Positions 1-64,000 of a DNA stretch of 64,000 nucleotides are shown here, piece after piece. The stretch is taken from contig JAIPGM010000001.1 of NCBI GenBank assembly GCA_021735655.1, forward strand, positions 64,001-128,000, read 5' to 3'. Under the pieces are notes generated by a model that was not told where the DNA came from, did no database searches, and saw nothing but the letters and a program-made list of their open reading frames with translations. Origin of the DNA: Candidatus Omnitrophota bacterium. GTDB taxonomy: Bacteria; Omnitrophota; Gorgyraeia; Duberdicusellales; 4484-171. Each line of letters opens with the position of its first letter. Position 1 is the first letter of the stretch. The translations under genes and the position numbers were made by a program.

Positions 1-3000
1 TATCGCCTGCCGGTTGATGAGGCGCTTTTAAAAGATGAAAGAGGACGTGTAGGAACATGGGGACCTGGTAATGATGATGTTAAGGTTCTTTTTATCGATG
101 AGAATGGTAAAGCAATTACTAAGTGGATCGATGGTGGCTCTGATGATTCAAATTTAGAAGATACTATCGAGGATTTCTATCAAGGCTACAAAGGGTCTAA
201 TGAAAGAACAAGTGGTAAGTTAGAATTGGATGCAGTTCAAGAGATGTATGGTGAATTTTCACCAAACGATGAAAATGCTTATGCCGCACTCACTGGCCAA
301 GGTTATGTCAAGCGGAATGCTTTAGGTGATCGTGACCCTAAAGGAACAACGAAATTTATACCGTTTGATGTAGATGTAAATCATTTAAAACTTGCTCCTA
401 AAGGTGATGCGGCTTTGGCGAGGGCTTTGAGTGATGCTAATGGTAATGGCGTAAGAGATAATGCTTTATTTGTTGATGGCGATGGAACAAAATATTTAAT
501 TCCTTGGGATGCCAAAAATCCTTTTAGTTTTTGGGATACTAGTTTTGAGCAAGCCTTAGAGGAAACCCGTACTAGCGATGTTTTATTCGTACTTCAGATT
601 AATGCTCAAGATATCATTGATTTTGAAAAAAAGGATCCATGGACCGGCGGCATGAAAAAGCTTGCGCCATTTGCAGTCAAAAAGGATGGTGAAATCATTG
701 CCTATCGTTTAGTGGTCAAAGGTTCACAAATCGTACCGGAAGGCAGCGACGGCATTACCGGAGAGACGGCTAATAGAATGAAATTAAAGATTGGTACTGA
801 CCGCGGGTGGTTCTTCGGGGCGGGTCAAAGTCATTTTGAAACCGCTCTTGAAACTAATGCTGAAAATCAACATTGGGCTTTTGATAACAAACTGTATACC
901 GAAGCGGTTGGGCGTTATACTAAAGGCTATGATTTTAGTCTAGATGATACTGCCATTGCTTCAATTGATACTGGAAGCTCAGGTGAATCTTCAGGCCGGC
1001 CTTACCAGGTAAGATGGCTTTCAGTGAATGATGCTACCGAACATTTTAAAGGTGGCTATTATGGCGAAGTTTCTAAAGAAAAGTGGGATGGATTTGTTGC
1101 TGACAACAAAAAAGTAATAGAGGTGCAAGACGAAGACGGCAAAGAGGTTAGAGAGGTTACAGTTGTTCCTTTACTTTTTAAAAGTGATAATATTTTTGAC
1201 ACCAGGGATGGAGGAATGTTTGACCGGGAATCAGATAATGTTGAGTTATTTGATCTTAATTCTAACAGTGAAGTAATTAGAACACAGTTTGCTGATGGCG
1301 GAACCTGGATGGATAGTAATGTAGAAGATGCAGCTGAAGATGCTATGCAGCCTACCGGTAACCTTGATTTTATAAATGAGTCTTGGAGTGGTTTAAATGC
1401 AAATAATTTTGCAATTTTAGGAAACAATGAAGCTTTTTATGTTGATGGTAAGTCGCTTGAACCTTATTTTATGGAGTTGTGGCATAATGATCCGGGTAAT
1501 CCTAACGTACTTGATCTTGTTTCAACTACCATGGCTGCCAATGATTATGTTGATGCTGTAACTTGGGGCTCAGCTGAGATAGCTGGCGAGGTTGTTTTAA
1601 CCGCAGTACTTTTCTTTGCTACACCTGGTCTTCCTGATGAGGTAGCTTCAGGTGGTGCCGCATTAAAAGGCGCGTCAACGATTTGGAGTGGTTTCAAGTT
1701 GGGCGCAGATGCTTCTAAGGCAACAATACGCACCGTCAAGGTGATGAGAACAATAAGAAATGGTTTGTATGCCTATAATATCGCCGGAGGAATTATGGCT
1801 GGGTATGCTGAGGCGAAGAACTGGGTGGTCCATGGTGAGTCACTGCTTGGCTCTGGTGAACATAGCAATCCTTTGGCTCTTGTAGATGCTTATAAAGATG
1901 CCGGACGTACGGCTTTTGTTATTACGGTTGCTATGGGTGCCGGAGGTGCTGCGCTATCGAAGGTTGCCAAATCAACTGGCTTATCAAAAGTAGCAGATGT
2001 TTATAAACATCTGCCCAACCTTGCTAAAATTCCGATTGGAATGCTTGGCCGTGCTGTTGGTTATGGATCATTGGGTGCCGGAAGAGCTGTTCTTTATGGT
2101 GATAACCCTGGTAGTGAGGAGTTTTGGACTCAAACTCTTGCAGCTGCTGCTATTGGGCAGGTTTCACCATTAATAAAGTTAGCTGGAAAAGGCATAAGAC
2201 GTGCCGGAGCACCAAAGCTTAATGATGCTGGAAATGCGATTAAGTCAAGCATCCCGGTTCGTTTAGCTCAAGCTACAGCTAGGACAGTTGGTAAAAGTTT
2301 ATATCGCAACAATGTTCCTTTTACTGGTGCCTTGGCTACTGGCGGAGCCGGAGCATTTAATGCTTGGGTCACTAATGAAAGCAATTATTCGGTTTATACC
2401 TTTGTTCAAGATGCCTTCATTGGTAGTTTAGCAGCCGGAGCTGCTAGTAATTTTGGCAAAGCTGTATTCAATTGGAATCAAAAGTTGAGCAAGCTAAATC
2501 CGGCAGAGTATGCTAAGGCTGAGGCAGCAGGTATTAAGAATATGGTTGGCGGCGTCAAACAATGGGCTTATCAAGGTTGGCCAGCGCTTTGGGCGGTTAC
2601 TGATCTCACTACTGAGGTTCTTAATAGAGGTAAGCTGGGCGGCTATGATATTGGCAAAGAATTCATGATCGGTGATTTAACCGCTAATACCGTACGTAAC
2701 ATTAACAATGTCGTTGCCTTATGGACTCTTTCTAGTAGTTTTGCTCAAGCTCGTGGTGCAGGCAAACATTCATGGTCGGAAGGATTTAAGAATCTTAAAG
2801 AAGGTTCTATTAAGCGTTTTACTGCTAGGGGTGATTTCTTGCCGATTAAAGGTCTTAATTCTCTTGAGTGGGGTTTAACCGCTGCCTTTGCTACTGGTTA
2901 TCCTACTTTTTATAAAAATTACCTTGGTTCAGATGCGTCTTGGAATTCTAAAGATTCTTGGTTTGGCCGTGATTTTTATCGCACTTTAAGTATAGTCACA

Positions 3001-6000
3001 ATAGGCACAAAACTAATTGTTCCGGGATTACGCGATACGCGCAATCTTTCTAGATCGTGGTTTATGGAAGAGCAGGGTGGAAAGCAAGTATTGCTTACGC
3101 CAATGAATCTTACAGCCAAGATGGTCGCTGAATCAGCTCGTCTAGTTAAAGATCTCTCGATCATGATGCCGCTTTTGCCGCATGTTCAGAATTATCTTTA
3201 TGAAAATAGTAGTGGTTGGAATTTTACTGATACGCTTCTTGGTGAGATGTTTGATATCCAGAAAATGCCGTCTGAAGTTTCCCGAGATGTCGTTGCTGCC
3301 ATTGAGGCCCTAAAAAAAGATCCATCTAAGGTAGATACCTTTATAAAGGAAAACATTAAAGATTCAGCTACCCGTGAAGCCTTAAGAAATAAGATCGATT
3401 TAATTAATAAGTCTTCTTTAGCTAATAAAAATCGCGAGATAAGAGAGTTAGTGATATCTACTTATACTGAAGATATGTTAACTGCTAGAAAAATTTCTAG
3501 TCATGGTATCGCCCGGCAGGCAATGGAATTAGGCCTTGATCCTAATGCTCCAAATACTTCGCTTTGGGATTTGCAAAAAAATATTGGAGTTGAACAGTTA
3601 AGAAATCAGCTTGATATTACAACTGGCCCAGAGCGTGAGCACATCTTGCAACAGATTAAAAACTTTGAACAAGCAACACCGTTTGAGTACAAGCTTAATG
3701 TGATGTCAAATTATTCATGGCAAGGTGCAATAACTGCTATGTACTTTGGTCCGACCATGCATTTTATAAGACCGATTTTAAACCCCGGTCTTAGTAAAAT
3801 GCCAGGCTTAGGTGAGTTTCAGTCGTTAGTTCAAGATTTCTTTGGTGATGGAGCTTTTATTGGCGATACGATGAGGAAAGTTGGTATAGACAGTATACCA
3901 TATATCGGAAAGCCAGTTGTTAACGCTGTTGGTAGGGTTATTGAATTCGGCGTTGAAGAAAATTTACGAGAAGTTGTCACTAATCTAGCATTTAGACAGG
4001 CCTTTGTTCAGATCGGCGGGTTTTTAGCTCCTCCGAGAAGAATGGATTATGCTTCTAATGCTGACTATTTTAGGGCTCAATCAGTTTATCAGCAGGCAAT
4101 GGAATGGATTGAGGAATCATTTGACGGTAAGGGGGTTTCGTTTGCTAGTGTCGCGGCTAATCTTAATTTAAATATTCCCACTCAAGCTCTTCAATCGCCA
4201 GGTAGTCCGACTAGTTCAGCTGTTTACGGTAGTGGAACCAGCCCTTTAAATAACGGCCGTGAATTAGCCACAGAGTTACTTACAGCTGAGGCAGATTATA
4301 CTGGTTATCATGATCCAAGTACAGTTGATATACAAACTGGTCCGGGAAGTTTTGCAACTTTGGCTGATCTTAGCTTGCCTTCATCAGGAACTCCAGCTGG
4401 CACTTCAGACTCAGCAAAAATAGTTTTAGTTCGTGGATTAACTAGGCAAACTGGTCAAGCTGACTTTGTTAATCCGGTTACCGGCGAAATTGGCATTGAT
4501 GCTTCCTTAGGAAAATATGATGCTTCTACTGGAAGGATAGCTCTTACCGATCAAGGTGGAGTAGCCGCACAACATGCTGCGGCTGAGTTTAGGGCGCACA
4601 GGGAAAACGCATCTAGAAAGGGTGTTTCATTAGAGGATTATAATACTTGGTTAGATAGTAATCCAACTGTGGCAAGAACAATCCATGATGGGGTTGTTTC
4701 TGATGGAGCCGTAGCACCGAGAAGTAATTTTGGTCTTTTTGCAACGCCGGTAGCTGATATTGTTGTTGAGGTTGGCGATAGACCAATAAAGATGAAGGGA
4801 ATAAAAGCTCCAGCTACAGCCGCAATTAATGGGATTTGGTCACTAAGCAGTGACAAGGAAAGAGTCACCACTTTAGATGGTTTAATTGGTTTTGTCAAGA
4901 GAGCGGTTATTCGAGATAAGGCTGCTGAGGTAAAGCTTAACACTGGCAGTGGTCAAATAGTCTTGACTGCTGACAATTTAATGGAATTAGAGATTTTAAG
5001 GGAACGTCTGGTTAATGTTCAAGGCAGTGTTAATACGGATGAGTTAATCAATAGAGCCCGTTATTCACAAGATAACGCGCGCCGTCTGGCTGCTCAACAG
5101 TCTTTAATTGAGACCCTTAACAATGATCAGCTATCAACACTTATTTCTGGAGAAGCAGTCGGTCAGTTAAAAATTGATTTTCTCCAGGAAGGTTTAACTC
5201 GAGCTATGGCTGGAAGGCCGAGTCAGCTAAGAAGAAAGATAGTTGGTGATGCTTTTGATAGATTAGGTAGTCGCTATAGAGATTTACCGCATGGGCTATG
5301 GTCTTTTTATCATTCTTTCCGATCAGCAATGAATCGGACTGAGTTCTATATGCATAAGGCTCAATTTAGATCTGACAGTGCACGTATAGATTTAGTTCAA
5401 AGGATTAGTGATTATCAAGATAGTCAATTCGGCCAAGGCGAGAGCAGCAGCCAAACTACGATTGCTTTGCAAGGTGTCTTACCTTATTATAGCCGTTATT
5501 TAAGGCGCGATGCTAATCGTCGCTTCTGGGCCCAGAAAGCTAACTCTGGTTTAGATTCTTATGGTCGCCTGTCACCATTACGATTGTTGCAATTAGCTGC
5601 CTGGAATCGGGAACTTAAATTAGCTGAATTCTACGTGGATGGATTTAAGACTGAGTTTGATGCTGAAGGTAAAATTGTAGTTAAGCCGCTAGACCCAACC
5701 AAAGATATAGCTTATGCTTTGGTCGGACGTAATGGAAGAGATTTTGATACTCCAATGCGCTGGGTTGAATGGCGGGCTGGTGATAAGTTGCAAGATTTCA
5801 TTTTCAGGTATGACCTTAAGGCTGATAAATTGCTTGAGTGGGCTTTTTATAAGGCAACGGATAATAGTGGATTGAAAACTTTAAGAAAGGCTTTAGGTCA
5901 TAGTGATGACCCTTATCCACCAATAGTTATGGAAATGAGCCAGCATTGGGGTGATCTTGATGATGACCCTGTTATTGCCCGTAAAAATAAACAAATTAAA

Positions 6001-9000
6001 GTTGCTAAGGTTTTTGAACCTGATTTTATTAGTGTTCCGGGCGTAGATACTCGTCGTCAATGGCCCATTGGCAAAGGACTAACCTTAACTCAAATCGATG
6101 ATAGCTTATATCAGTTAGAGGGAACATCTGATTCAGGAGAAGCGATTGACGAACCTATTGATTTTTCTGTTATAGGTAGTAGATCTCTAGAAGTGACAGT
6201 GGGCTCTGAAACTATCAAATTTTCTCGAGCTAAAAATAATGCTGCCATTGTAGTTACTAAAGCAGGAAAAGAAAGCAAGCTAACTGAGCACAATGTTCAG
6301 CTGTCTTTAAAGGTTGATGTTGATGGTAAAGAAGAAGAGATCTCAGTGACACTTGCAGAAATAGCTAGAAACGATAGCCTTTACCTTATATATCCTAGTC
6401 AGGCTCGAGGATATGATATTACAATTATTCATCGCAAGATGGGCGGACATCAGCTAACCATAAGGCCTTATGCCATTGATGTTTCTGGTAGTGATGATTT
6501 ATCGGATGTTGGTCCTCGTAGTTTGGTTGAAGATTGGAAAGATGTTTTACCTGAAGCAGAAGAGGCAACTGATAAACCTGGATTTAAGAAAGAAGCTGAT
6601 AAAGATGGTATTTTAGCTAGCTTAGAGGCCATCAGAGATGATGCAATGGCTGGCGATCCCGACGCTAGAGAAGCTTGGGGTCAATTAATTGATGATGGTG
6701 TGGCGGCTGGTCTTTGGGAATCTGCTAAAAAAGGTCCTAAATGGGATGGTTCTGGTCCGGCGATTAGTAGTATTGGAGAAGGTGACAATGGATCTGAAAA
6801 CCTAAGTATAGCTGGCAAATGGTCAAAACATCAAAAGATTAAGCAGATCGAAATGATAGTTCGTCTTAGTGATGGCCAGGAAGTTTCAGTTCCAGTAACA
6901 GTGTTTTATATTGAAGGTTTAAGAGCAAGCCATGTTGGTTTTTATGACGGAAGACCTTCTATATACTTAACTTACTATTCTGACTATTCACATGAGCTCG
7001 GTGAAATGCAGCGGCATTTACAGGCAATGGCTGACCTTGATTTATCAGCTACTAGCCGGACGGATATTGAGGAATATTATAGTAAGCTCACTCCTGAAGC
7101 CGCACGAGCTATCCATGATCAGGTTATTGGCGAGGCTATTGATGGTCTTATTAGTCAAGGTATTTTGCCGGGGAAGGATCCTTTGGCTGAATATGAGAAG
7201 TTTGTAGAGTTAAGGCATGCTCGTGAAGACCTTGAAAGAGCAACAACCAGTGAAGGTTTAGCTAAAGCTCACAAGAGGTTAAATGATTTATCTTTTGAGG
7301 CTAGTGATATGGGCATGAAGCCTAGCCGTGTTTTAGCAGTTGAAGCTGGAGTTGATCAAGAGCCGTCAGATAGCCAGACTAATGATAGCCCGTTTGTTCC
7401 TTCTAATCGCATACCTATGATACCGGGCTCTTCTTCACCAGTTGGCTTACCTAATCCTGTTCAGACTCCGCTTGGCCCAAAAGGACTTTCGCCTTTATCT
7501 ATTATTAGAAGGACATCAACTTTTATTACAAATTTAAGGGGTTATCTGGGTTTATCACCGGCTATAGCTGCTGAAGTAGGCGCTGTGCCGAGTGACAGTA
7601 GAAGACAAATAGATGCTTTAACAGCTAAGATTGACGATGAGAGTGATATAAGCTTTGGAAGATCAGCGAATTCGCCCGGCAAGACGGTGGTCCATGCCGT
7701 AATTGCCTTTGTACGGCGATGGATCAATTTTACAGAGGGCAAAATAGCAGTTGGATTTACAAATTTTGGTCATAAATTTGACCAATTTGAAAAAAGAATC
7801 AGCTCTTTATTAGGAAAAATAGGCAGAAATGCCACTTCTGAAAGCGAAAGAGGTGTATCTGGAAGCGCTAGGAGTGTATCTAGAAACGGAAGCCAGGCCG
7901 GAGTAGCTTTAGACAACGGAAAGGATTTAGAAGTCAAAGCTAACCCTGAAGATGGCCGCAGACCGTTAAGAAGAGCTGAGAGTAAGCTTATAGCAGGAGT
8001 AGATAGCATACCTAATAGTAGGGATGCTGAAGAAACTCAAGCTGAAGAGATTGGCTTGGGTGGTAATGGCAGTGGTTCACAAAATGGTGGTCAAGGAACT
8101 TTAGGCGGTTCGTCTATAGAGATCGAACTACCTGTAATTTTAGATTTACGACGTCTTCATGAATCCTTCAGACCAGTAGTAGTTGGCCATAATGCCTCAA
8201 AGGCTCAGGCTCCGCCTGCAAATTCAAGAAAACAAGCAAGTTTAATTTTCTATACCCACCCAATAACTGTACTTGCTTTAGGTTTTATCTTTTTAGGCTT
8301 AAAAATTCCTCAACTTTTACCAATATCCATATTAATAGCTTTAGGTTTATTAGCAATATTGCCGCTTTCTCGGATTCTACCAAACGTGGCCGGTGGGTCC
8401 TTGAGAGCGGCTTTTGATTTAAATCAATGGACCCATCCTACTGTCGAAGTTGCCTCTCCATCAACCTTCCTGGCAAGTGGGTCCCGTAATAATAGTTCCA
8501 GTAGCTCAATCCACACCGATAAGGTTGCCTCTCCAACTTCTAAATTGGTTGTTGGGCTTTCTGGAACTAGTCTTAATAGAGGGGTAAGTAGTAATAGTAG
8601 CAGTAAAACAGAACAAGGGGGTGCAAGATGGTCAGTAACATCAGATCGCTCAGGTTTCAACACTTGGTTGTGGCAACCGATGGAACGATTTTTGCATCAG
8701 CTAGAGACAGCTTTGACCGCATTGAGAACTACATCGTCAGCCGTTTTGGAGATGTTAAGCGCCAGGTTAACACGCGTTTTGAACCGGTTAGATCGGATGA
8801 GGCAGGATGGATTAAGAACCTTATCGGAGTTCCTCAGACGATTCCGATCTATCGGGCAAAGAACATTAGCGTTAGCTAGCGCTGAGAGAGGGTCCGTGGC
8901 AGGACAATTTTCTAAGGGGGTCCGTGGTAGACCACTCGATAATGGCCGAGCTAAAAGATTAGCATCTCGAGCTTTGTCAATAATTACTGCTTTAGCTGTT

Positions 9001-54000: not shown

Positions 54001-57000
54001 TTTGAGATGATTGCTCGCCTAAGGTCAGGCCAGGCACAGCGAAGACCTTTAGATAATGGTAAAAAAGAAAATCCAGTAATAGTTATTCCAGTCCATGTGC
54101 CAGGACAAAATCAAGCCGTAAGTCAGATATTGTCAGATCAAGGAGTAGATAATGAACTTTTTCCGATAACCGTACGTGAATACGAGTGGTATATGCATAA
54201 AAGAATTCGCGAAAAAATTGAAAGTATAAAAGCACAAGCTATTACTACTGTTATCTATGGTTCAAGGTGGCGGGTGTGTGTTCATGATGCTTTTTATGGA
54301 GTGCTACTGGCAACCTCGCTTGATGAAGATAGGGTTGATTTTGATCAGGTTGAGATTTTAATCCCAATTGATTATATTGATGGGATCGACCAAGCTATTT
54401 TAGATAGGCCAGAATTCGTAAATGCTGATTTTAGCAACACCCACTTATTTGGTGGAAATATGAGCACGGAAAATTTATTTCTCATCCCACACCGAATTTT
54501 TGTTTATGGTCAACAGTATCCTGACTTTTCGGGAAGAAAATTAGATGAAATAGATGCTGATTTTACCGTAAGAATTTTTCGTACAGCTCAAGAAATGGCT
54601 GCGCATATCAAATCAAGCCGTAATCATCAAGCTCAGACGCCACTAGATAACGGTAAAAAAGTCAATAAGTTGGACTTAGTCAATTCGCAAGTCAGAGGTT
54701 TAATTTCCGGCAATCAGACTCGTTTTCAGTCGCGACATTTAACTTATACTAATTCGGTAGAGGGGATTAAGGTGGACGATTTAGTTGGTAGTGAAGAACA
54801 GCTAGGAAGAATTATTGATTTTCTTGAACAAATTTATGATAAGGGCGTGGGAAGCTTAGGTGATATTTTACTTTATGGCGGAGCAGTAAGAAGAAAGGTT
54901 TATGATTTAGGTCGTTTTGTCAGCGATTACGATCTTATGGCCCTTCCGAAGCTATCGGCGCGTGAATTACAATTACCAGTAAAAGCTCAGAGGAAGGTTG
55001 CCCGGGGAAAAGCCGAAGCAATCTTAGAAATGGTTGCTGATGATTTAGATAGTACTCCTGAGCGGATAAGTTCACCGCGCGGCAAAGCTGCCTTTGAACG
55101 CATACCGGTAAGCTTAACTTGCTATATTGGCCAAGACGGGGCACCGATTAGCTTCATTAAGCGCAGCCGTCAGCATTTTATCGATTTATCGATTTCACAT
55201 ACCTATATATCAGTTGGTCAAAGACTTATTTGGGATTTTTGGAACGGTCAGGGCTTAGCTGATTCAGTTACTAGCACAGCTCGTTTAGTCGGGTTTGCCG
55301 ATGAAGACGAAATAACCTTACCTAATGTTTTAAGAACAATCAGATTCGTTTATGAATGCGGTCTTAATTTCGAACCAGAGACCGAGCGGATAGTCAGAGG
55401 TTATCTTAGACGATCCCCGGATAGAATTTCTTTAGGAACATTGTCAGATCTTTCGCGGGACATGATTGAGAATGTTCTTTTTGGTATATTCCTTGGAATT
55501 ATGCGGGCTGCTGAATCACAGGAGGCACAGGAGGAGGCCAAAGCTTTCTTGCGGGAAATCGATCCGAACGAGGTATTAACTGATTTCTCACCGCAAATTA
55601 CCAATGAACTTCATTCTAGCCGTCCGCTCGATAATGGAAGGCAACGCGCCTATCAAGATATCGGAGAGTTTACTCACAAACATGTTGTTTATCCGGAATA
55701 TTTACCGGGCGGAACAACCGTAGATAAGCTCATTGAGCGTGAAATGCCCTCAGCCTTATTTGCTTATGAAACAATATTAAGAATAAGACATTGGATGGAT
55801 TCTAATGGGCTAAGTAATCGGCCATTAGTTATTTGGCAGAATATGCGCTTAGCTGGTTTATATCCTTACATGACTAAAGAAGTAATGAGAGAGCTTGAAA
55901 TTATAGAAGTTTCGTCAGAACAAATGAACAGTATTGTTGCTGGAAGAAGAAAATTGCCGCAAGGGCTACAAACGGCACGATTTATACTTATCCGTCATAA
56001 AATTCCTTCATTGCGTGTTCCTTATGATAGTAGTTTTCCGGATGCCTTGTCAGCCTTTGGAGCAAAACTGAAAGCTCCGGTGATGATGCTTGACCATTCA
56101 GCTTGTCATTTTAGCCGGGCACAGCAGCCACTTTTAGGTATGATGTATGACGAACAATATTTGAGATCTAATATCGCTATTAATTGGTTAAATAACCAAA
56201 GAGATCTTTCAGAAGTTACTGATTTGCTTTTAGAAGATACAGTTTTAATAGCGGTAAATGCAAATACATTGCTTAATGGCTCTTACGATCCAAAACATGC
56301 GTCGTTTTTAGATGATTGTGATGGAATCCTCGATCGTAGCCCCAAGGAAACAGTAAGCATCGCCGGTCAAGATACTCCGATTGGAGATGCTTTCTTCAGG
56401 GTTTATGAAGCACGCACTGATAAAGCGATAGCTAGTTATAATGCTGATGCTCAGGCTAAACCTTTAGATAACGGAAAGATAAGTCCAGCCGAACAACGCC
56501 TAGTCAAAGATACACTTTTAATTTCCTATCGAGAAGAAACAACCATTCCGGAAGGTTTCCTTAAAGCGGAAGCTGATTCAAAAAGGTTTGAGGCTTATTT
56601 AGATAAGCAAGTTAGACATATTTTATGGGAAATGAGTACAAATATAATTTTACATGCAGCCGGTAATGGCTCAGTAACTGTTAATCTAGTTACTTTAGAT
56701 GGTCAGTCGGCCTTAGAAATTATTTCTGAGAGTGATGCTTCGGAATTCTCATTAAGTAACTTTTTTGTTAGTTATGATGATTTAGTTAATTTTGCCGCTA
56801 ACCTTAGTAGTAAACATGTGGGATTATTACAGATGATGCAATATGCTGATCGTTTCCGATTTACTCATCGAGATGGCATTTTAACTATTGAAATCGTAAA
56901 GTGGCAAGATCAGACACAACCAAAGGAAATTGCTATTGATTTAGCAGTTGATCAGGCTTCAGTTGAGACAGCCTTAGCTAAAGTTAGGACTGCTCCTAAT

Positions 57001-60000
57001 AGTAATCGTCAGCGTTTAGAAATACTTTCTCAAGATAAGGGAGAAATTGGTGCAGTAGCTCAAATTTTTATTCAGAGCATTAGTGCGCCTTTAGATAATG
57101 GAAAGAAACTTGACCCTGAGACCGAACTTAGAAGAATCGCTCAAGAGTTAGATGATTTAGGCTTGGGCCAAGCTGATGTCAGTGACAGTATTGATAGAGT
57201 AAGGGTTGCTTTAGGGCAAGGTTGGTATATACCGGAAAATAGGCCGCATATTGAAATTCTAGGCGATGAGCAGGGGAGGCTTTTACGTGCCTTAGATGAA
57301 ACTCATCTGCATCAAGAGCTGCCGGTAGTCGGAGCCGTAGATACAATAGTTGCAAAGTTGTGTGGTTTTTGTTTTCGTTCGGCTGACGTAGTAGTTTTAT
57401 CGCCCAGAGGAAGGAGAGGTTTCTTTATTCGTCGGGCAATTAAACCATATGAGGGTTATCTTACTTTGGTTGGCGGCGGGGTCCAGAGCGGTAGTTATGA
57501 AACAACCGCAAGAATGGAGATAAGAGAAGAGTTGATTTTAAGCAGATTACCAACTAATCCAATACAGATTATTAGTTATTATATTGCCGTAAAGCACATA
57601 TCTTATCTTAAAGGTGCTTTCTTATTATATATTTTAACTGATGATGAATTAGGCCAAGCTAGGGAATCCAGTCGCCGGGTTAATTCAGCTAAGGTAAATA
57701 AGAGCCGAGGAGAATTTATTGCTTGGTTAGCTCAACAGCGCGATCAGGAAGATGGTACTGGCGAGGCTTTTGGAATTTATGAGATTGATCTTGAAACAGT
57801 ATTTGATCGTCATCTACCGAATCCTGAAGTAGCTGGCGAAATTGGCCTAAGAATTCCTGAAACTTACGTTGGTGGTGAAGTTGAAGAAGAGTTTGCCGCC
57901 TATACCCCGGATATATTACAGTTATTTATGCAAGATCCAGCAAGGATAGCCAGAGCTAAAGAGGAATCCTTGAAACTCATCCGAGGACCTTTAGATAATG
58001 GAAAAACCCAGCAAGAAAGGAAACGTATTTTAGCTAGAGCTCGGTCAATCAGAAATACCAACCACGATATTGGTAATCATCTAAATGGTTTGCTAGGCTG
58101 TTTGAAAGAATCCAAAGAAATTGAAGAAGCTTATGCGATTTTTGGAAGATTTTCCGCAGACATTGCTGGTTTAAGAAAGTATCGCGAAGGTGGCGAGGCT
58201 GTTACCGATCAAGTTCTTGATGAAATAGCTCAGGCTTGTGATCATTGTGAAGCATTATTGGAAGAGTTACGTGATAAACTTCTTGAATTTGAATTTATCC
58301 GGACTATGGGTATTGACGATTTGGGTGAATGTTTTAGTCATATGGATCTAGAAATAAGAGGGTGGTTAGTCCAGGCAACCAAAGATGCCTATGATGTAGT
58401 TTTAATGTTGTTACATGACGAGATAGCCATTTTTAGTGCAGTTGAGGCAATAACTTTTATAACTCGAAGAGAGGCTAGCGAAGAAGAACTTGAGGTTCCC
58501 GAGATAAGGGTCAATCCTGAAGGTAGTCGAGTTATAGTATCGATAAACAGTCGTTACTTTTTAGGAATTTTTATGAATATCATCAGGAATTCTTGCACAG
58601 TTTGCAAGGGAATGTCTGGTCCGTTTGCTTCGATTGAAATTGATGAATCAGGAGAAGAATTTAAAGTTGTGGTTCGCGATAACGGACCGGGCATGAATGA
58701 TGCTCAGGTGCATCAATACAATCTTCAAGCGGTCGGTGATCTAACGGCTGTTACCGGAGTAATTTCTTCAAAGCCAGCCAAGGTACATGCTGAATCAAGT
58801 GGCTACGGCCGAGGCCTAAAAGAAGTTATTGCTGATATTGTTTTGCTTGGTGGGCGTACTTTTGTTGAGCGGTTATCAGCCGGAGGCATGCAAACCGTAG
58901 TAATTTTACCGAAACGACAAATAAAGAAACCTTTAGATAATGGCAAAAAATCTTTAAAATCTCGCCTAGCTGAAGCCGATACAGTAATTATTCCTACGCT
59001 GGTTGGTTTAACTGAGGGTCGAATTACTATGATAGTAGGTGATAATTTTGTGTCTTCTTACCAAACAGTTTTAGAGTTTTTAAATAGTGAAAAAACTAAC
59101 ATAACCGCTCTAAAGACAATATCAGGAGTTTTAAGTGAATTTTTCTTCGACGGTCATCCTAAGGCGGTAATGGTAGGTGAAGCTGATCTAGAGGCGGTGG
59201 GTATAGTTTTACCTGAGAGTGGAATAATTGATCCATCCAAAGATAATGTAGACATAGATGATTTAAGACAAAAGATCCTTGAGCTGCGTGATGTCATTGC
59301 CGGGTTTCCTTTAAGTCAAGTTGAAGAGTTTGAACAACATAAGTTTGATACCTTGGCTGACAATAAAAAACAAAAAATAGACGAAGATTTAACCGTATAT
59401 GCTAATACTCATATCTTTGACCTTAGATTAAGGGCAAAAAATGAAAGTGAAGTTGTGGTAAGAACTTTTAAGAATTCTCCGGTTGTTTCAGATCAAGTAG
59501 AGATTTTGGGAGTTGGCCCGGAAACTATCCAAACATGGTCAAGAATAATAGAAGCTTCAGAATTAATTGCTCTTTTTGGCCAGTTCCCTCAAGAATTAAC
59601 TCCAGCCTTAGAGGATAAAGTTATAGTGAAAGTTGCTGTTCCGCTTGATAACGGCCGGAATAGTTCAGCTGATACAACTAACCAGCTATTAACCCAACTT
59701 GAGCAAATGGCTCGCGGTCAGATTCCTGACGCTCAAGCCAGTAAAATAATTAAACAACTTTTAGTTTTGGGTACCGAGCGTTCGGATGTCCAAAGAGCTT
59801 TATTACTTTACAGTCGCCTGAGAGAGAAGCCACTCGATGGTTTATTTGATAATTATCATATAAATGGTGTGCCGGTAAGATTAGCAAGAGATCAAGAAGT
59901 CGTTTATATGACTAGAACCGGAAAAACTTTTAAACAGGTTTTTGGTGGTAAAAATATTATGGTTGTCGAAGTCCATCCGGATGACGCTATGCTTAATTTT

Positions 60001-63000
60001 GGTGATCTTGCCTTTGCTTTAAAAATGTATGGCGATAGTAATACTATTTTTGCTATGGCCATACCTGATCCAGCCGGAGTTTCTGATTATCAAGTAGATT
60101 TTATCAGAGTCCTTTACCTGATTAGTGAGTTTCTTGCGTTCTCAAAATCTGGGGATTTCGTAACCAAAATTGCAGAAAACCCTTTTATGAATACGAGTTC
60201 AAATGTATTAAAGTCTTGGATTCGGAGCGCTGAAGCTAAACTTGGGTCTGATTGCATGGCTCAAGGTGAATATGTAGATTTAGAGATAAACTTACCGATT
60301 GATCAAGCAGCTCGTGATGAATCTGGCCGATTGTTATCATTTGAGACTATATTCCAGGAACCAACTGATGAAGATCAAGAAAAAGTAGATAATTTAGTTA
60401 AGCAGCATTCCGATAGAGATATCTATATAGTTCCATCTCCGTTTTCGAATCATCCGCATCATCGAGCAATAGCCCGGATATTTTTATCAGCTATTTATCA
60501 ATTTAATCCGAATGCCCAGATATTTCTTTGGGATGATGATTTAAGTTTTAGACAGCATCGAATGAGAGCAAACACATTCTATTTCTATAGTCAATTAGAA
60601 CAGGCTCATAAGGAGAAATGGATTGAAAAAATTTATGATTCTCAAATTCTAAGAAGAGGTAAGGGTTTTTATGCCCAGCGAGCCGAACAAATAGCTTTAG
60701 CTGCGGCTGATGCTGGATTTAAAGAGATGATATTTGAGCGTGGCGATGTAGAGGCTTTCCTGGTTATTTTGGCCCATGAGCTTTTTTACGCTGAAAGATT
60801 ATTAAAGGTGAACATTGTTGAACGGCCAGCAGGTAGGCCTCTCGACAACGGTCGTCAATCAGATAAGGTTCAAGAAATAAGCTTTAGTGATAGAGTAGCG
60901 CTCAGACTTTTAAGCTTCTTGCATTTAATTAGAATGCCTACTTGGATTGTTTGGCATCTTACGCCAATTCGTTTTCGGGGTGGAATATTAGTTAGCGGCG
61001 GTGATTGTGCTGGTCTTAACCCAGTTGCCGGATATCTTTCGCGTTATCTTTGGCAAGATGGCCATATGCTAGCCGGGGTTAAAAAAGGCTTAGATGGCTT
61101 GATTAAAGCTGACCCAACTTCTGAGATTGTTCCAATAACTAGGGGAATGGCTAAGATTATGCCTTATGCTCCGAGTTTTGAATTTGCTTCAACCCGCAGG
61201 AATTTAAAAGAGGGAGAAGCTGAGACCGCCGTAGCCTTAGATAATATCCGTAAGAATTTTGGATTTTTAGTAGTTATTGGCGGCAATGATCATCTTTATG
61301 AAGCTAAAAAATTAGGTGAATTATTGGAGAAGGCCGGGTTAAAAGTTATTGTAGTTGGCGTGCCTAAAACAATTGATGCTGACACTTTATACACTAAACC
61401 CTTAGGAATTGAGTCAGCTGCCCAAGCGGTGAACGAATATGTTTATCGGGCAGCAGCTTTACCGGGGTCAGGCGAAGTAGTAATTATTGAAGCTATGGGT
61501 CGGGATTGCGGTTATTTAGCAGCTCGGGCCGGAGATAGAAGAGATGAAGCGATCGCCTTACTTGGTGCCGAGTTAGCCGAAAAAGCCGAAAAAGCCAAGC
61601 CAACTATGGAGACTTATGTTCCCGAGCATCCTAAAACTGTAGCTGAAATCCGCCGCCGGGCTAGAGAAAAAATGGCTAAAGTCGGAGCAATAACTATTAT
61701 TCTTTCTGAAGGTTTTAGAATTAACCAAACAGATGATCCGGACTATGGACCATTGCTAGAGGCTAATCCAGTATTAGCTGAAATCCTTAGAGGGCTTAAG
61801 CCTGACACACAAGGAAATATTGTTATTCCACAAGGTATTGCTGCTGAATTTGTCGCAGCTATTTTAGCCGAATATAATCCGACAATAGAAGTATTAGGTT
61901 TTACACCGCGCGGGGCTATCCCGGTTGATCAGGAAAGAGAGCTTGCTTCCGGTTTTGCCCGTCAAGCTAGAAAAGCTATAGTTGAAAGAATCAGTGGCAG
62001 GGCTGTTGCCTGTTGTGATGATATTAATCATCCGGCTGATTTAGGCGTTATTGACCTTGTGCCGATAACTCGGGTTTGCGGTAAAGATGCTAAAGGAAGA
62101 TCCATCAGTAAAGATGTAGATCAAATTATGAGTTTAACTGATCAGAAAGCAGCCGGAGTGATAATTTCCGATAATCAAGAAATTATGCCGGAAGAACCAT
62201 CAGCTGAGACTATTCGGAATAAAGATCCGCCGACTACCGTTAGCGCAGTTGCTGCAACTGCAATTTCAGCCTGGGCACATCGTCGGCCTTCAATTTTTGT
62301 TATTCGCGGGCAGGAAGCTGATGAAACAGTTAATCGATTAGCAGATCTTTTAGCTGCATCAACCAATTTAGGGGTTATCTATGTACGTCAAAGAACTGAA
62401 AATTCATATCTTGTTCTTTCGCGAAATACGTCTTTATCCTTAGGGGAGGTTCTTTCTAGCGCTCACCAGATAAAAGCAGCTGTTGGCCATCTCAATGTTG
62501 TTGTTTCACCATATTTTCAAATCAGAAAGAATGATCCAGTCATAGTTCAGTTAAGCCAAGTCAGAGAAAGGCTAACTGCTGAATTATCTGCCTTAGGTGA
62601 AGCTAAGGACAATCAAGCTAAGCGAGAAGGTATAATCAAGGCTCTTGCGCCTTATCGAGAGTTAGCCTTACGTTTAGCTAATGGCGATATTTCTGATTCA
62701 GCCTACTACGAATTTAATCCAGCCTTAAATGATCTTGGTCAGGTAGTTAAATTGATACTTTCCTTAGCTGTTCCTCAGGTCGAGAATCATACAGGGCCAT
62801 TGTCCGGCATGCGGCTGACTTCTTTAGGCCGGGCTTTAGATAGAGAAGAGAGAATCTTAACTTATAAACCGCTTGACAATGGCAAATCAAAAGAAGTTAT
62901 GACAGTTTCACACTTAGCTTATCCGACAAAGGCAGCTCTTATTCTTGAATTTGGTTTTTATCATGAAATAGAGCTTACTGCGGGGTACTTTTGCCTAGAG

Positions 63001-64000
63001 AATGAAGGTTTAGAAACAACTGTCGGTTTTAGAAGATGGTCTGAGCAACTAGAAGACTACTTAGAACAACCAAAACGTGGTCAGCAAGGAAATTTAGTCG
63101 CGATAATATTTGATGTTCCAATTGGATGGATTACAAATGGTGAGCGGATAGTATGGCATCAAGATGTAGGTTCGACTTTTTTAAGTTTGTCATCGGAAAC
63201 AAAAGTGGAAGCATTACCGCAGGAATTTTTAGATAGATTGGCCGCCGAAGATGTTGAGTGGTGGGGCAAGCAAGGTTTAGAAATGAATCTGGCCGATTTT
63301 TTTGCTTTGCATTATCGCAGGGGCACCTTAGGCCATGTGCCAGCTGAAAGTCTAAATCTTGAACAAACCATACAGCGAAATGTAGCACATTATGATGAAA
63401 GTTTTCTTGAAACATTAGTTGGCCAAAAGTTAACAGCGATGAGCCAATTGGCACCTCTCGATAATGGCATCAGAAAGTCTGGCCCTCGTTCGCATATCGG
63501 AACTTCAGGGAAAGTGACGAAAGTTCAACCAGTTGCCAAAGTTGGTGATCGTGATGCTGATCCTGAAGAACTAAAGAAAGAAACCAAAACCAAAAAAAGT
63601 GAGCCAAAAGCTATTGATTTTGGTCCAGCGGTAATTGTTGAGCTTTCTCAAGAAGCGCAAAGGTTGTTGGCTGAATCGAAAGATGGCCCAGACAATCCTG
63701 ACGGAAAATCTCAAGCCCCACTTGATAATGGCGTTAATGGTCTTGAGGTGATCAGCCAGGAAGAAGTGTTTTATAAAAATATTCACGAACATTTATCTCA
63801 ACGATCAGTGCCAGCTGATCAGATAGATTTTATTATTAAGGCAATGCGCTTAAATGCGCGCCATAATTTTGTTTCGCAATTAAGTAGACCGGCAACCTAT
63901 AATTCAAATTATCCGATATTTATCGGTAATTGCATGATGTCTCAAGGTACTGGTGTTGCCTATCAAGCCGCGCTGTTAAAACTTGAATATGGACAGTATG
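1..64000 (+). CDS. Single giant ORF, partial at both ends (more than 21,333 codons inside the window). Modular 'polyprotein-like' megaprotein.
   Basis: Frame 1 translates without stops in every line I spot-checked, including 1-600, 3001, 7201, 8821-9300, 10561, 17281-17460, 36001, 47461 and 63901-64000. All 36 PLDNG-type motifs (4243 to 63718) fall in the same frame (start position = 1 mod 3). The ORF track contains no frame-1 ORF and only ORFs of 198 aa or shorter elsewhere. The translated sequence shows recognisable enzyme motifs throughout. Confidence 0.85.
8947..9063 (+). other. Internal signal-peptide-like segment straight after PLDNG (RAKRLASRALSIITALAVLGSANVVQA|AEA). Similar segments sit at 11212-11330 and 21484-21600.
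   Basis: Translation shows a basic n-region, a hydrophobic h-region of about 17 aa and an AxA-type site directly downstream of the motif at 8932. Confidence 0.5.
12121..12465 (+). other. Thioredoxin-fold domain with the active site WCGPC (12187-12201).
   Basis: Translation ...[26 protein letters not shown]...IDIDDNPEIFNKFKV... carries the canonical thioredoxin CxxC motif and matching surroundings. Confidence 0.75.
15121..15624 (+). repeat. In-frame near-perfect tandem repeat array of 36-nt units (AAEAKKVADAEK) and 51-nt units (LAAEKAAEAKKVADAEK), about 10 clean copies plus degenerate flanks reaching about 15700.
   Basis: The units tile exactly: 15190-15240 (51), 15241-15291 (51), 15292-15327 (36), 15328-15363 (36), 15364-15414 (51), 15415-15450 (36), 15451-15486 (36), 15487-15537 (51), 15538-15573 (36), 15574-15624 (51). 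Copies differ by only 0-2 nt. Confidence 0.9.
16590..17790 (+). other. Long coiled-coil-like region rich in Glu, Lys, Ala and Gln, interrupted by a Cys/Arg-rich insert at 17284-17440.
   Basis: Heptad-like charged and Ala-rich sequence, for example ELEKAEGELEALKKAKEELTGKTAETDEELKTKQAEIERLKENLKQRQ... Confidence 0.55.
17810..18130 (+). other. Cluster of transmembrane helices (FYENHPFWFFFLLLTPGYLFGIWAAI...VVIALIAVGLSLALA...).
   Basis: Several hydrophobic stretches of 18-22 aa flanked by basic residues. Confidence 0.5.
19060..19760 (+). other. ATP-grasp-like domain, first copy (VVKIADGSQGVGIAMF resembles the RimK/GshB-type motif xLKPxDGSGGRGV).
   Basis: Motif at about 19420-19470 with surroundings typical of an ATP-grasp ligase. 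Confidence 0.45.
20520..21340 (+). other. ATP-grasp-like domain, second and more degenerate copy (HKAATAYILRQAGVSMPKT...AIVKPANRSRSEGVEAI).
   Basis: N-terminal ligase-like motif plus a xVKPxxGSxGxGV-like stretch at about 20760-20800. Confidence 0.35.
21850..22536 (+). other. Archaemetzincin-like (peptidase M54-type) zinc metalloprotease module. HELGHLFGINH lies at 22375-22407, with the Cys cluster running to about 22500.
   Basis: HELGHLFGINHECGCKTCIMHQADSTEEVARTKQFCKSC fits the pattern HExxHxxG-x4-C-x4-CxM-x15-CxxC. Confidence 0.6.
22537..22653 (+). repeat. Linker cassette PLDNGKQTRQSSPSDRLEVDGASSSVAASPTSSKPLDNG. A partial copy lies at about 21700-21840, and related copies at 43636-43752 and 44563-44700.
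   Basis: Nucleotide strings shared between copies include caatcg(c/t)ctcccagcgat and gctagccctacttcttct. Each copy has PLDNG at both ends. Confidence 0.8.
23530..24450 (+). other. Polytopic membrane module, with further helices out to about 25250.
   Basis: Many consecutive hydrophobic helices (LGSLIAGLVAALPVVGLVAGALALVVVLPPAI..., LVWITGFGSLFNVFVPALVVLVAVFYLW...). Confidence 0.5.
27540..28300 (+). other. Candidate GH-A clan (GH5-like) TIM-barrel glycoside hydrolase.
   Basis: IANEINYYD (an NE-x acid/base-like motif) at about 27658, and VIISEWGE (a nucleophile-like Glu) at about 28030, spaced roughly as in GH5 enzymes. Confidence 0.3.
31500..33560 (+). repeat. Eight tandem protein domains of about 85-100 aa each. 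Consensus ...(V/I)VAANDxxVxILIDxxAP...T(L/N)...(R/K)YGYK(D/E)LxDDSL(Y/W)LFD...
   Basis: Unit starts near 31578, 31883, 32190, 32440, 32697, 32948, 33205 and 33430. The last four are also clearly similar to each other at the nucleotide level. Confidence 0.7.
37790..38900 (+). other. Polytopic membrane module, with additional helices at 36960-37100.
   Basis: Repeated hydrophobic stretches of about 20 aa (IFAISFFVFLAKYLPLAKIVAFLF..., LAIMAIVIVIVITV...). Confidence 0.45.
38554..38739 (+). repeat. In-frame tandem duplication, 2 x 93 nt (KLVAY(I/V)RKLNAVRKSDTG(K/S)VMATVWSDI(K/R)SL).
   Basis: Copy 1 is 38554-38646 and copy 2 is 38647-38739. They differ at about 5 positions. Confidence 0.85.
39900..41990 (+). 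other. GT48-family (FKS1 / callose-synthase-like) beta-1,3-glucan synthase catalytic core (40180-40600), followed by a C-terminal multi-TM region (40590-41980).
   Basis: IVGIPEHIFTASFGNEGKLLAFSDSTFANMVQRVIAMGGTRMHYGHPDSFRKRFAKRMGWTASSSKLNEDIFAGYRAIRYGKRIKFIEYRRVGKAREVKF...FGRGSGEQ matches the conserved FKS blocks I recall (...GGKLHYGHPD...LNEDIYAG...R(G)G.IKH.EY.Q.GKGRD(V/L)G...G.GEQ). Confidence 0.65.
42085..42440 (+). other. Novel HExxH domain, paralog A (HELAH at 42274-42288), ending near the SLDNG variant at 42448.
   Basis: ILAFGGSDALATNGIELNDQNLVMSPALSAPAEVRGGVLYINPNTLRGPPEQLRVIFEGHELAHFLGMDE...AFLENNSIGL is paralogous to 50560-50930. Confidence 0.5.
45583..46380 (+). other. HAD-superfamily phosphatase domain (motif I DLDGT at 45601-45615; motif IV GDSAGD at about 46195-46215).
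   Basis: ILWDLDGTLVNT ... IVGDSAGDVAAAR, spaced as expected for a HAD hydrolase. Confidence 0.7.
46790..47300 (+). other. Class I SAM-dependent methyltransferase fold.
   Basis: LRIGSLGSGDGLAIYQ (motif I, at about 46870-46895), followed by an acidic post-I loop and FDVIYLNNVLHELF (a motif II/III-like region). Confidence 0.5.
48480..49600 (+). other. UAP1/USP-type nucleotide-sugar (UDP-sugar) pyrophosphorylase domain.
   Basis: WAEPAGGRGERLS (compare LAGGQGTRLG) at about 48590-48625, and AHGHGDIH (a GHGD motif) at about 48961-48985. Confidence 0.5.
50560..50930 (+). other. Novel HExxH domain, paralog B (HEAYH at 50773-50787).
   Basis: IIALFGGRNVFDQ...LLINPNVIRGPPQYDSQLKIIFEQHEAYHLDGDDE...RFLENNSLGI is paralogous to 42085-42440. 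Confidence 0.5.
52650..53960 (+). other. PEP-utilizing enzyme domains (PPDK / PEP-synthase-like): a phosphohistidine 'mobile' domain followed by a PEP/pyruvate-binding TIM barrel.
   Basis: ETGVLHYGIAARAEGFPVLA (compare GGxTSHAAIxARExGxP) at about 52700-52750, and FGSVGSNDLISF (compare S(I/F)G(T/S)NDL) at about 53590-53620. Confidence 0.5.
54760..55100 (+). other. Pol-beta superfamily nucleotidyltransferase head domain, of the CCA-adding / poly(A) polymerase type.
   Basis: LYGGAVRRKVYDLGRFVSDYDLMA (a GGAVRD...DxD motif) at 54850-54940. Confidence 0.45.
57380..57640 (+). other. Nudix-hydrolase-like domain with a degenerate Nudix box.
   Basis: GGGVQSGSYETTARMEIREEL (57473-57535), compared with the typical GGGVEPGETPEEALRRELKEEL, sits in a context shaped like a Nudix fold. 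Confidence 0.4.
58040..58925 (+). other. Histidine kinase module: a HisKA-like H-box followed by a GHKL/HATPase_c domain.
   Basis: IRNTNHDIGNHLNGLLG (H-box) at about 58050-58100. VVRDNGPGMNDA (G1, DxGxG) at about 58665-58710. SGYGRGL (G2) at about 58801-58825. Confidence 0.6.
59950..60500 (+). other. LmbE / PIG-L-like (GlcNAc de-N-acetylase family) domain candidate.
   Basis: MVVEVHPDDAMLNFGD (an HPDD(E)-type motif) at 59961-60010. Confidence 0.35.
60940..62100 (+). other. Phosphofructokinase (PFK-A family, possibly PPi-dependent) domain.
   Basis: ILVSGGDCAGLNPV (about 60985-61025), VVIGGNDHL (about 61275-61300), VPKTIDAD (about 61360-61383), EAMGRDCGYLA (about 61493-61520). Confidence 0.65.

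Follow-up and report, generated by a model that had tools for sequence, protein, structure and literature searches.

Open reading frames (ORFs) of more than 20 kb have been reported in 77 of 116 Velamenicoccia genomes (PMC10066038). Multi-enzyme giants of up to 85,804 amino acids (aa), among them an 'Archaeovorin' class in which glycosyltransferases, methyltransferases, peptidases, NUDIX domains, glycolytic enzymes and PPDK are joined, were described by West-Roberts et al. (2023, bioRxiv 10.1101/2023.11.21.568195), and giants of up to 147,155 aa, including a 'multi-enzyme metabolic cluster' class in which methyltransferase, HATPase_c and HAD domains abound, by Nielsen & Lui (2026, bioRxiv 10.64898/2026.06.07.730766), whose catalogue lists 916 long Omnitrophota proteins (10 kAA or more). 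Cleavage of the giants was suspected by West-Roberts et al., who called the cleavage points unknown and hence abandoned structure prediction per unit. The DNA analysed in this study is a stretch of 64,000 nucleotides (nt) from Candidatus Omnitrophota bacterium (assembly GCA_021735655.1, contig JAIPGM010000001.1, positions 64,001 to 128,000 of the forward strand), called the window from here on. It lies inside a single giant gene, in which a short peptide, PLDNG, recurs at the borders of complete protein units. This peptide may be a cutting or docking signal of these giant proteins.

The window has in common with the Omnitrophota giants that its ORF continues for tens of kb without a stop, that many transmembrane (TM) segments are present and that most of the sequence is unannotated. 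Domains of the same kinds are also combined in it as a mosaic (glycosyltransferase, methyltransferase, peptidase, NUDIX, HAD, HATPase_c, glycolytic and phosphoenolpyruvate (PEP)-utilising). Its length lies above the 20 kb (at least 10,000 aa) by which those giants are delimited. The labelled homologues among the best matches all came from Candidatus Omnitrophota (P0001, P0002, L004, P0080, P0061 and P0047). Because the domain set matches that of the published giants and these homologues are from Omnitrophota, the ORF was regarded as a member of this known kind. A preliminary description of the same DNA had called genes of this size exceedingly rare, which holds across life but not within the Omnitrophota, where such giants had already been described. 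A SecA-DEAD domain is typical of full-length giants, as is a C39 or S8 peptidase close to the N-terminus; no SecA DEAD-like, C39 or S8 domain was found in the window (Pfam, E≤1e-3), both terminal parts of the gene lying beyond it. Conversely, the window contains an FKS1/GT48 glucan synthase and an M54 archaemetzincin, neither of which was seen in the accessible text of the two papers on giant genes. The same text reports no recurrent junction peptide, whereas the window has PLDNG.

No TAA, TAG or TGA codon occurs in frame +1 over the full 64,000 nt (21,333 codons); each of the other five frames contains 952–2,749 stops, and the longest open run there is 918 nt. In frame 1, all sixteen 4-kb bins show the order GC1>GC2>GC3 (~0.53/0.39/0.28) and a purine at codon position 1 in 61–75% of the codons. 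GC skew is positive throughout the window, and homologies with Pfam and PDB entries run in this frame from nt 12,091 to nt 61,977. Because stops are lacking and the coding statistics are uniform, the ORF leaves the window at both ends, and the window covers an inner part of a gene larger than 64 kb (more than 21,333 aa). The single uninterrupted ORF of the preliminary description was in this way confirmed, and its additional argument, a chance of (1/3)^35 that so many boundaries would share one frame, is unnecessary since frame 1 is proven stop-free. It had also stated that only short antisense or off-frame ORFs accompany the gene and that promoters and terminators are absent. Only one other ORF of at least 150 aa was indeed found (198 aa, antisense, 15042-15638), a by-product of the tandem array in which it lies, and sigma-70-like and terminator-like sites did not exceed the expectation from dinucleotide shuffles (nt 1-60,000 scanned). 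Some -10-like matches come from GATAAT within the motif, GAT and AAT simply being common codons. No Rfam match at gathering score and no tRNA was obtained in the window. Apart from a scarcity of cysteine (0.21%, 45 of 21,333 residues), the amino acid composition of the translation is ordinary, and at least six of the 45 cysteines belong to the zinc-binding signature of the M54 module.

That the long ORF is an artefact, either of a chimeric assembly through repeats or of non-coding DNA that is open by chance, can be considered effectively refuted. Repeats are present at 15.1–15.7 kb and in the short junction cassettes that carry the motif, but the longest exact repeat beyond the tandem array measures 31 nt. 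The cassette copies are 55–69 nt long with 62–91% DNA identity, and because they are so short and diverged, a mis-assembly joined through them, which the preliminary description had wanted to see checked, is unlikely. Furthermore, 21,333 stop-free codons at 40% GC are impossible by chance given the stops of the other frames, the codon statistics are uniform in every bin, genuine protein homologies lie along frame 1, and the frame would not survive random chimeric joins. Every tandem period in the window is a multiple of 3. The array at 15105-15688, with a 123-nt super-unit at 96% identity and the longest exact repeat of the window (117 nt), is the sole place where a copy number could be mis-assembled.

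The enzyme families found along the frame are distinct and none is dominant by copy number: thioredoxin, M54, Glucan_synthase, HAD, methyltransferase, UDP-sugar pyrophosphorylase, PEP-utilizers_C, NUDIX, HATPase_c and phosphofructokinase (PFK). NCBIfam matches all remained under their curated cut-offs and confirm only divergent thioredoxin, archaemetzincin, HAD and enzyme-I-like domains. Upon self-comparison of the protein, aa 9968-11472 (~7%) formed the single repeat region and the remainder a true mosaic. Apart from this region, the earlier view of a mosaic of enzymes, neither adhesin nor polyketide synthase (PKS) or nonribosomal peptide synthetase (NRPS), was upheld. A giant repetitive adhesin of the RTX, Bap or Ig-repeat type was rejected on the limited extent of the tandem domain array, and a PKS/NRPS megasynthase on the absence from the Pfam results, over 21,333 aa, of the repeated KS/AT/ACP or C/A/T domains of these families.

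The motif had served in the preliminary description as a mere marker of the frame, but it is the most interesting part of the finding. Thirty exact copies of PLDNG, against 0.015 expected, lie between nt 8932 and nt 63718, and seven variants with one mismatch (about 1.3 expected from shuffles) were found from nt 4243 on. All of them are in frame 1, as had been stated for the stretch from 4243 to 63718; the 36 copies counted there have to be corrected to 30 exact copies and seven variants. PLDNG is the sole dispersed k-mer that is over-represented, and PL.NG was counted 32 times versus at most 7 in shuffles. The sequence logo reads [R/K/T]-P-L-D-N-G-[K/R] and contains next to no information outside these positions (at most 1.35 bits at flanking upstream positions). 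The residue after PLDNG is lysine or arginine in 23 of the 30 copies and proline in one.

At the DNA level the 30 copies represent 27 different 15-mers, in which proline is encoded by each of its four codons and leucine by CTN as well as TTR codons. Since the 15-mers vary synonymously around an invariant pentapeptide, selection acts on PLDNG as a peptide and not on the DNA. The codon usage of the motif is mostly near the background of the gene, with leucine CTC as the exception: this codon is used in 7 of the 30 copies versus 3% of all leucines of the gene, and TTA is under-used (9 of 30 versus 48%). The other four codon positions are nearer to background usage.

These data bear on a possible origin of the motifs as scars of DNA-level gene assembly (insertion, duplication, recombination at a short target or an in-frame mobile cassette) with little or no function as a peptide. 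The recurrence of cassettes at 21.7, 22.5, 43.6 and 44.6 kb with 62–91% DNA identity, the duplication of some segments of motif plus flank (families D3, D5, D8, D9 and D11) and the shuffling of modules among lineages, with homology breaking at the motif, all fit such an origin. It is nevertheless improbable: the many synonymous 15-mers with both types of leucine codon point to purifying selection on the peptide, the R[SA]ExR motif discussed below varies synonymously as well, and a neutral scar would decay non-synonymously, whereas degenerate copies number only seven. For a substrate of recombination, moreover, 15 nt of such variable sequence would not suffice.

The positions of the motif coincide with the borders of protein units. 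Detected domains and homology blocks together cover 6,335 aa, and all 30 copies lie outside them (P ~3e-5; 1e-5 in the motif-dense second half). The UDP-sugar pyrophosphorylase is bracketed by PLDNG 31 aa upstream (48127) and 52 aa downstream (50122), and as it aligns with nearly the whole of a 600-aa chain, one complete protein lies between these two motifs. The HAD domain starts 11 aa past a PLDNG, the HATPase_c domain ends 4 aa short of one and the M54 domain 11 aa short of one. AlphaFold models of the PFK unit (mean predicted local distance difference test score, pLDDT, of 79) and of module M11 (predicted template-modelling score of 0.82) showed compact, confident cores with a pLDDT of 80–95. 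In these two modules, three of the four flanking motifs were placed in tails with pLDDT<50, and the fourth adjoins such a tail, in a 10-residue block averaging 68. Together, the whole-chain match of the pyrophosphorylase, the module-wise homology described below and the compact cores of the two modelled modules indicate that several complete, independently folding units are encoded in the one ORF.

Three copies of PLDNG directly precede textbook Sec signal peptides, with a basic n-region, an h-region of 12–15 aa and an AxA site. A hydropathy scan, a heuristic and not a dedicated TM predictor, gave 47 hydrophobic 19-mers (Kyte-Doolittle ≥1.7) in 16 clusters, seven of which start within 60 aa after a PLDNG (1.3 expected, P ~2e-4). 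Unit-sized modules with signal peptides right past the motif would also be explained if the motif acted in translation, by bond skipping as in 2A/StopGo peptides or by internal re-initiation, so that separate proteins arise without a protease. PLDNG shares with 2A peptides that it is a short junction motif within one ORF with asparagine and then glycine near its end, resembling the NPG of 2A. 2A peptides, however, have the consensus D(V/I)ExNPG↓P preceded by a conserved tract, and PLDNG has neither: proline follows the glycine once in 30 copies, and at most 1.35 bits are found outside the pentapeptide and the K/R that follows. R[SA]ExR has nothing in common with 2A, which acts on eukaryotic ribosomes, and we know of no bacterial precedent for skipping of this type. 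Internal translation starts after the motifs were rejected as well: Shine-Dalgarno sequences with a start codon numbered 4 near the motifs (2.1 ± 1.4 expected) and methionine residues were likewise not enriched. A translational role is accordingly very improbable.

Among 5.8 billion clustered proteins the window's own protein was absent, and the best match had 51% identity. This match, P0001, comes from a 2.9-kb contig consisting entirely of ORF and is, with P0002 (30%), the best relative of the PFK module; scans of genome and metagenome contig collections with this module gave only distant PFK relatives of 26–32% identity. P0001 aligns to 60991-62847, its homology ends 7 aa short of a PLDNG, and the 350 aa that follow in P0001 have no match in the window. 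In two more distant Omnitrophota loci, L001 (ERZ27247363 k141_1845039) and L004 (JAZDOS010000042.1), the same type of PFK is a separate gene of 1,150 aa with its own signal peptide or part of a 1,973-aa ORF. It adjoins a multi-enzyme gene of 3,846 aa or of at least 2,062 aa and is followed by ordinary genes for PGI, oxidoreductases and a sugar-phosphate mutase (PGM/PMM). The same gene neighbourhood appears to be present in these loci in a less fused state.

A word-index homology search with five orphan modules gave no matches. An exhaustive HMMER search with four of the orphan modules (aa 18016-19034) gave 44 relatives among 1.84 billion representatives, nearly all of which align to one module as delimited by the motif; more than 30 of the 44 align to M11 only. 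The relatives of M9, M11 and M12 are parts of large Omnitrophota proteins of 217–6,765 aa. PLDNG is absent from these relatives, but at least eight of them bear another peptide, R[S/A]ExR, with 9–19 copies per protein (RSE.R 10–19; RAE.R 9 in one) versus at most 5 in shuffles; P0080 has 14 copies with 0.47 expected. When the PLDNG borders of the window were projected through the alignments onto these eight proteins, 12 of the 16 tested had an R[SA]ExR at a distance of 1–24 aa, for example with offsets of -15/-9 in P0061, -13/+1 in P0071, -7/+8 in P0074 and -1/+23 in P0075. The two peptides are therefore equivalent in position. In the one such gene read at the DNA level (L010), the codons of R[SA]ExR vary synonymously, and the motif is absent from the nine ordinary genes neighbouring it. 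The last copy in this gene lies three residues ahead of the stop codon of P0080, in the C-terminal RAEVRKAA (L010:30272-30298). Deep in a 5,717-aa protein, at residue 3725 of P0092 (residue 729 of P0061), the motif is directly followed by a signal resembling those of twin-arginine translocation (Tat), RSETR-ILSTRRTFLTGLFAVGAIAITGAPIKALA, with STRRTFL and a hydrophobic stretch.

The proteins with R[SA]ExR (P0053, P0061/P0075/P0092, P0064, P0071, P0073, P0074 and P0080) also share a C-terminal tail, -[R/S/K/H/Q/I]-[A/S]-A, for example FARAA, ISSAA, SRAA, RKAA, HSA, QSA and ISA, which is reminiscent of SsrA-like tails or of the recognition tails of C-terminal proteases. A candidate third junction dialect is DAAM[TAS]S, of which P0048 has five copies and which recurs in P0067, likewise at these borders, in numbers barely above shuffles. 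More tentative as dialects are [AG][AS]SLG (P0054) and TDMS (P0059), which lie at projected borders but do not exceed family-wise shuffles, and equally weak serine runs.

A motif that is constant within a gene and swapped for another one at homologous borders in other lineages argues for a signal at the junctions that one co-evolving factor recognises. The window would then be a piece of a giant, membrane-anchored, multi-enzyme Omnitrophota gene of the 'Archaeovorin' or 'multi-enzyme metabolic cluster' type, in which PLDNG is read by a lineage-specific factor, most likely a protease. We estimate the probability of this interpretation at roughly 0.45. In the proposed mechanism, complete protein units (PFK, UDP-sugar pyrophosphorylase, HAD with methyltransferase, an enzyme-I/PPDK-like unit, a histidine-kinase core, NUDIX, M54, thioredoxin, glucan synthase and many orphan domains) are fused in frame, with [R/K/T]-P-L-D-N-G-[K/R] at the junctions in flexible linkers, which we infer probably face the cytoplasm. 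One factor would read PLDNG in this lineage, and R[S/A]ExR would be used at the equivalent borders in other Omnitrophota. An endoprotease would cut the polyprotein at or beside the motif, by which soluble enzymes would be freed and new N-termini exposed, some of them Sec-type signal peptides. Proteolysis was ranked first because the units are whole, Sec- and Tat-like signals stand at the would-be N-termini, one motif is terminal and a protease module is flanked by cassettes. Extended to the group, the idea that Omnitrophota giants are true cellular polyproteins, in which dozens of whole enzymes, those of central metabolism included, are made as a single chain and cut at gene-specific pentapeptides (PLDNG, R[SA]ExR and possibly DAAMxS and others) by a co-evolving protease, is a more tentative one.

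Several observations weigh against cleavage by a dedicated reader. The M54 module and a duplicated HExxH domain are candidates for the cognate protease by their sequence, but no protease was tied to the motif, and none was seen beside the genes of L010 and L011 or inside P0080 and P0048. A profile built on 29 sites was compared with 5.8 billion proteins and gave no PLDNG-rich protein elsewhere (51 candidates sharing words, none at E≤10), so that the motif is known from this single gene. Exact copies are absent from the 5,884-aa stretch aa 8662-14546, which leaves some domain borders without a motif. A signal-like segment follows the motif in only 8 of the 30 PLDNG and 2 of 83 R[SA]ExR copies. 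Low pLDDT at the ends of a model can be caused by thin alignment coverage alone. A reader that is not proteolytic would explain the motif statistics equally well.

The last point leads to an alternative in which the protein stays whole and PLDNG, or R[SA]ExR elsewhere, is an uncut hinge or docking motif, bound by a scaffold, chaperone, SecA-like or repeat-domain partner that positions the membrane-tethered enzymes. The statistics of a single reader suit a binding partner as well as a protease, the motifs are situated in flexible linkers and are linked to no protease, and the published giants are described as membrane-anchored multi-domain assemblies with HEAT/TPR scaffolds, with peptides mapping along the giant ORF. 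We nevertheless regard it as less likely than cleavage, as the cleavable-looking Sec signals and the Tat-like one directly past internal motifs would be hard to use without a free N-terminus. The terminal motif of P0080, with three residues after it, leaves no downstream unit to tether, and mini-cassettes of 29–36 aa with two motifs have no obvious tethered role.

Cleavage at PLDNG would be similar to what is seen in the polyproteins of picorna-, poty- and flaviviruses, in which the junctions carry a consensus specific for the protease that differs between lineages and is uniform within a genome. As in the window, many complete proteins with a recurrent junction consensus are encoded in one viral ORF, the protease module is itself flanked by junction motifs and, in flaviviruses, internal signal sequences follow some junctions. 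The differences are that the window belongs to a cellular genome, encodes enzymes of central metabolism and is about ten times larger, and that cleavage is here proposed from sequence. In precursors of ribosomally synthesised and post-translationally modified peptides with multiple cores, such as cyanobactin PatE, short repeated recognition sequences also flank each unit of cargo inside a single bacterial ORF, where enzymes dedicated to processing read them. The cargo of PatE, however, consists of core peptides of 6–8 residues, versus folded enzymes of 100–1,200 aa in the window, and the recognition sequences are unrelated. Polymorphic toxins have demarcation motifs (VENN in CdiA, PxxxxDPxGL in Rhs) which, like PLDNG, are short conserved peptides where homology breaks and modules are exchanged. 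CdiA and Rhs have one such boundary each, before the C-terminal toxin, versus at least 30 boundaries between enzymes in the window, where no toxin or immunity context was seen.

Features of the 64,000-nt window. Positions are nucleotides of the window; amino acid positions refer to the frame 1 translation.
Feature	Position	Strand	Remarks
Internal fragment of single giant ORF	1-64000	+	Frame 1, 21,333 codons; start and stop outside window; 0 stops, uniform codon statistics, frame-1 domains
Variant motif PLNNG	4243-4257	+	
Variant motif ALDNG, then K	7906-7920	+	
PLDNG	8932-8946	+	Then signal-peptide-like segment RAKRLASRALSIITALAVLGSANVVQA↓AE at 8947-9045
PLDNG	9892-9906	+	Hydrophobic segments starting 24 aa downstream
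Variant motif ALDNG, then K	10939-10953	+	
PLDNG	11197-11211	+	Then signal-peptide-like segment RSRRVIPRTLSVIVTLVVLGSTKTAFA↓SG at 11212-11310; repeat family D8
Thioredoxin-fold domain	12091-12435 (aa 4031-4145)	+	Downstream of membrane segments; Pfam PF00085 1.1e-15; PDB thioredoxins 4e-15
Low-complexity tandem array (AEKAAEAKKVAD)n	15105-15688	+	Periods 18/36/51/123 nt
PLDNG	21469-21483	+	Then signal-peptide-like segment SSHRGLSIPVFLAGILTLGLTNIASA↓AE at 21484-21582, then TM helix
Degenerate junction cassette KLTRQSPPSE...DRLEVDGASSSVAASPTSS...PLDNN	21664-21837	+	Families D3, D9
Archaemetzincin-like (M54) metalloprotease module	22252-22503 (aa 7418-7501)	+	Pfam PF07998 2.7e-7; NCBIfam NF033823 6e-12
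Double-motif cassette PLDNG-KQTRQSSPSDRLEVDGASSSVAASPTSSK-PLDNG	22537-22653	+	Families D3, D5, D9
Two PLDNG 12 aa apart	23461-23511	+	Then TM-helix cluster
PLDNG	25984-25998	+	Last before 5,884-aa stretch free of exact PLDNG
Diverged tandem domain repeats, ~85 aa (255 nt)	29902-34416	+	Self-comparison, tandem scan
TM-rich region, ~20 hydrophobic segments	36970-41946	+	Hydropathy scan
FKS1/GSC2-like (GT48) beta-1,3-glucan synthase core	38830-40695 (aa 12944-13565)	+	Pfam PF02364 1.8e-55; PDB 9lu8/7xe4 3e-22
Small HExxH domain, copy 1	42028-42438	+	Sequence and self-comparison; 2 aa further variant motif SLDNG at 42445
Double-motif cassette PLDNG-KQNRQSPPSDDRLGGRASHNVAVAGPASK-PLDNG	43636-43752	+	
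PLDNG	44002-44016	+	
Double-motif cassette PLNNG-KQNRQSPPSD...GRASHDVAVTGPASK-PLDNG	44563-44700	+	Then single TM helix
PLDNG	45538-45552	+	Ahead of HAD phosphatase
HAD phosphatase domain	45586-46230	+	Begins 11 aa past PLDNG at 45538
Methyltransferase domain	~46870-47250	+	Same module as HAD phosphatase
PLDNG	47650-47664	+	
PLDNG	48127-48141	+	Opens UDP-sugar pyrophosphorylase module
Complete UDP-sugar pyrophosphorylase unit	48235-49965	+	Aligns residues 15-561 of 600-aa PDB chain 9uml_A, E 1.8e-71
PLDNG	50122-50136	+	Then two-helix hydrophobic hairpin
PLDNG	50446-50460	+	Opens 1,200-aa module
HExxH domain, copy 2	50515-50958	+	Begins 18 aa past PLDNG at 50446
PEP-utilising (enzyme I/PPDK-like) domain	52792-53772	+	In 1,200-aa module with HExxH copy 2
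Module M9, leading PLDNG 54046, next PLDNG 54640	54046-54639	+	Homologues align to M9 only (query 10-193, 7-197, 11-195)
Module M10, leading PLDNG 54640	54640-55623	+	0 homologues (word-index and HMMER searches)
Module M11, leading PLDNG 55624	55624-56460	+	Conserved alpha/beta domain, unassigned function, RPLIIWQNMRLG...MIDHS...LLNAN...SFFDD
Module M12, leading PLDNG 56461	56461-57087	+	Homologues align to M12 only
NUDIX domain	57376-57657	+	Inside module 57088-57987, leading PLDNG
Histidine-kinase-like module, leading PLDNG	57988-58929	+	HATPase_c domain 58567-58917
Module, leading PLDNG	58930-59640	+	No assigned function
Module, leading PLDNG	59641-60837	+	No assigned function
Phosphofructokinase module, leading PLDNG	60838-62868	+	PFK domain 60982-61977
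PLDNG	62869-62883	+	
PLDNG	63454-63468	+	
PLDNG	63718-63732	+	Last of window

The signature of the M54 module, HELGHLFGINHECGCKTC...CKSC, is intact, and junction cassettes are found on either side of the module. Four such 'empty' cassettes of 29–36 aa (KQxRQSxPSD...GRASHxVAVxGPASK), each bounded by two junction motifs, occur in the window at 21664-21837, 22537-22653, 43636-43752 and 44563-44700, and two of the four flank M54. A segment of about 45 aa upstream of a cassette is duplicated as well (aa 14501-14585 versus 14814-14901, 45% identity).

The HExxH domain (~150 aa; ...INPN..RGPP..QL..IFE.HE..H..G.DE) is present in two copies with 36% identity (E 3e-22). Judged by its sequence, it may be a metallopeptidase and is a candidate for reading the junction motif. 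In P0072, another large Omnitrophota protein, an HExxH domain of similar layout is found three times (residues ~2000-2080, 3640-3720 and 4850-4930). The glucan synthase core is of the eukaryote type and sits in the long stretch without exact PLDNG; the FKS1/GSC2 (GT48) family is, as far as is known, uncommon in bacteria. Just upstream of this core, in the membrane region, an in-frame tandem duplication of 93 nt (38549-38734, 94% identity) looks recent.

Searches of literature text gave no relevant paper mentioning PLDNG, RSEAR/RSEVR or polyproteins in Omnitrophota. The giant mosaic ORF as a type is already known; the architecture delimited by a motif and the lineage-specific dialects are not mentioned in the accessible text of the two papers on giant genes, and the motif seems to be new. 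Whether Omnitrophota giants are one chain or many cut proteins is explicitly an open question, which a junction peptide makes testable on existing metaproteomes, as it provides concrete candidate sites for cutting or docking. The motif also gives a rule, based on sequence only, for splitting giants into real units for annotation and structure prediction, which worked for two modules, and a handle for finding the reader through co-evolution. If it is true that these proteins are cleaved, this would be a virus-like expression strategy in a free-standing bacterial genome, with the junction dialects as a cleavage map taken straight from sequence. It would amount to cellular polyprotein expression on an unprecedented scale, and gene counts and metabolic reconstructions for the phylum would change.

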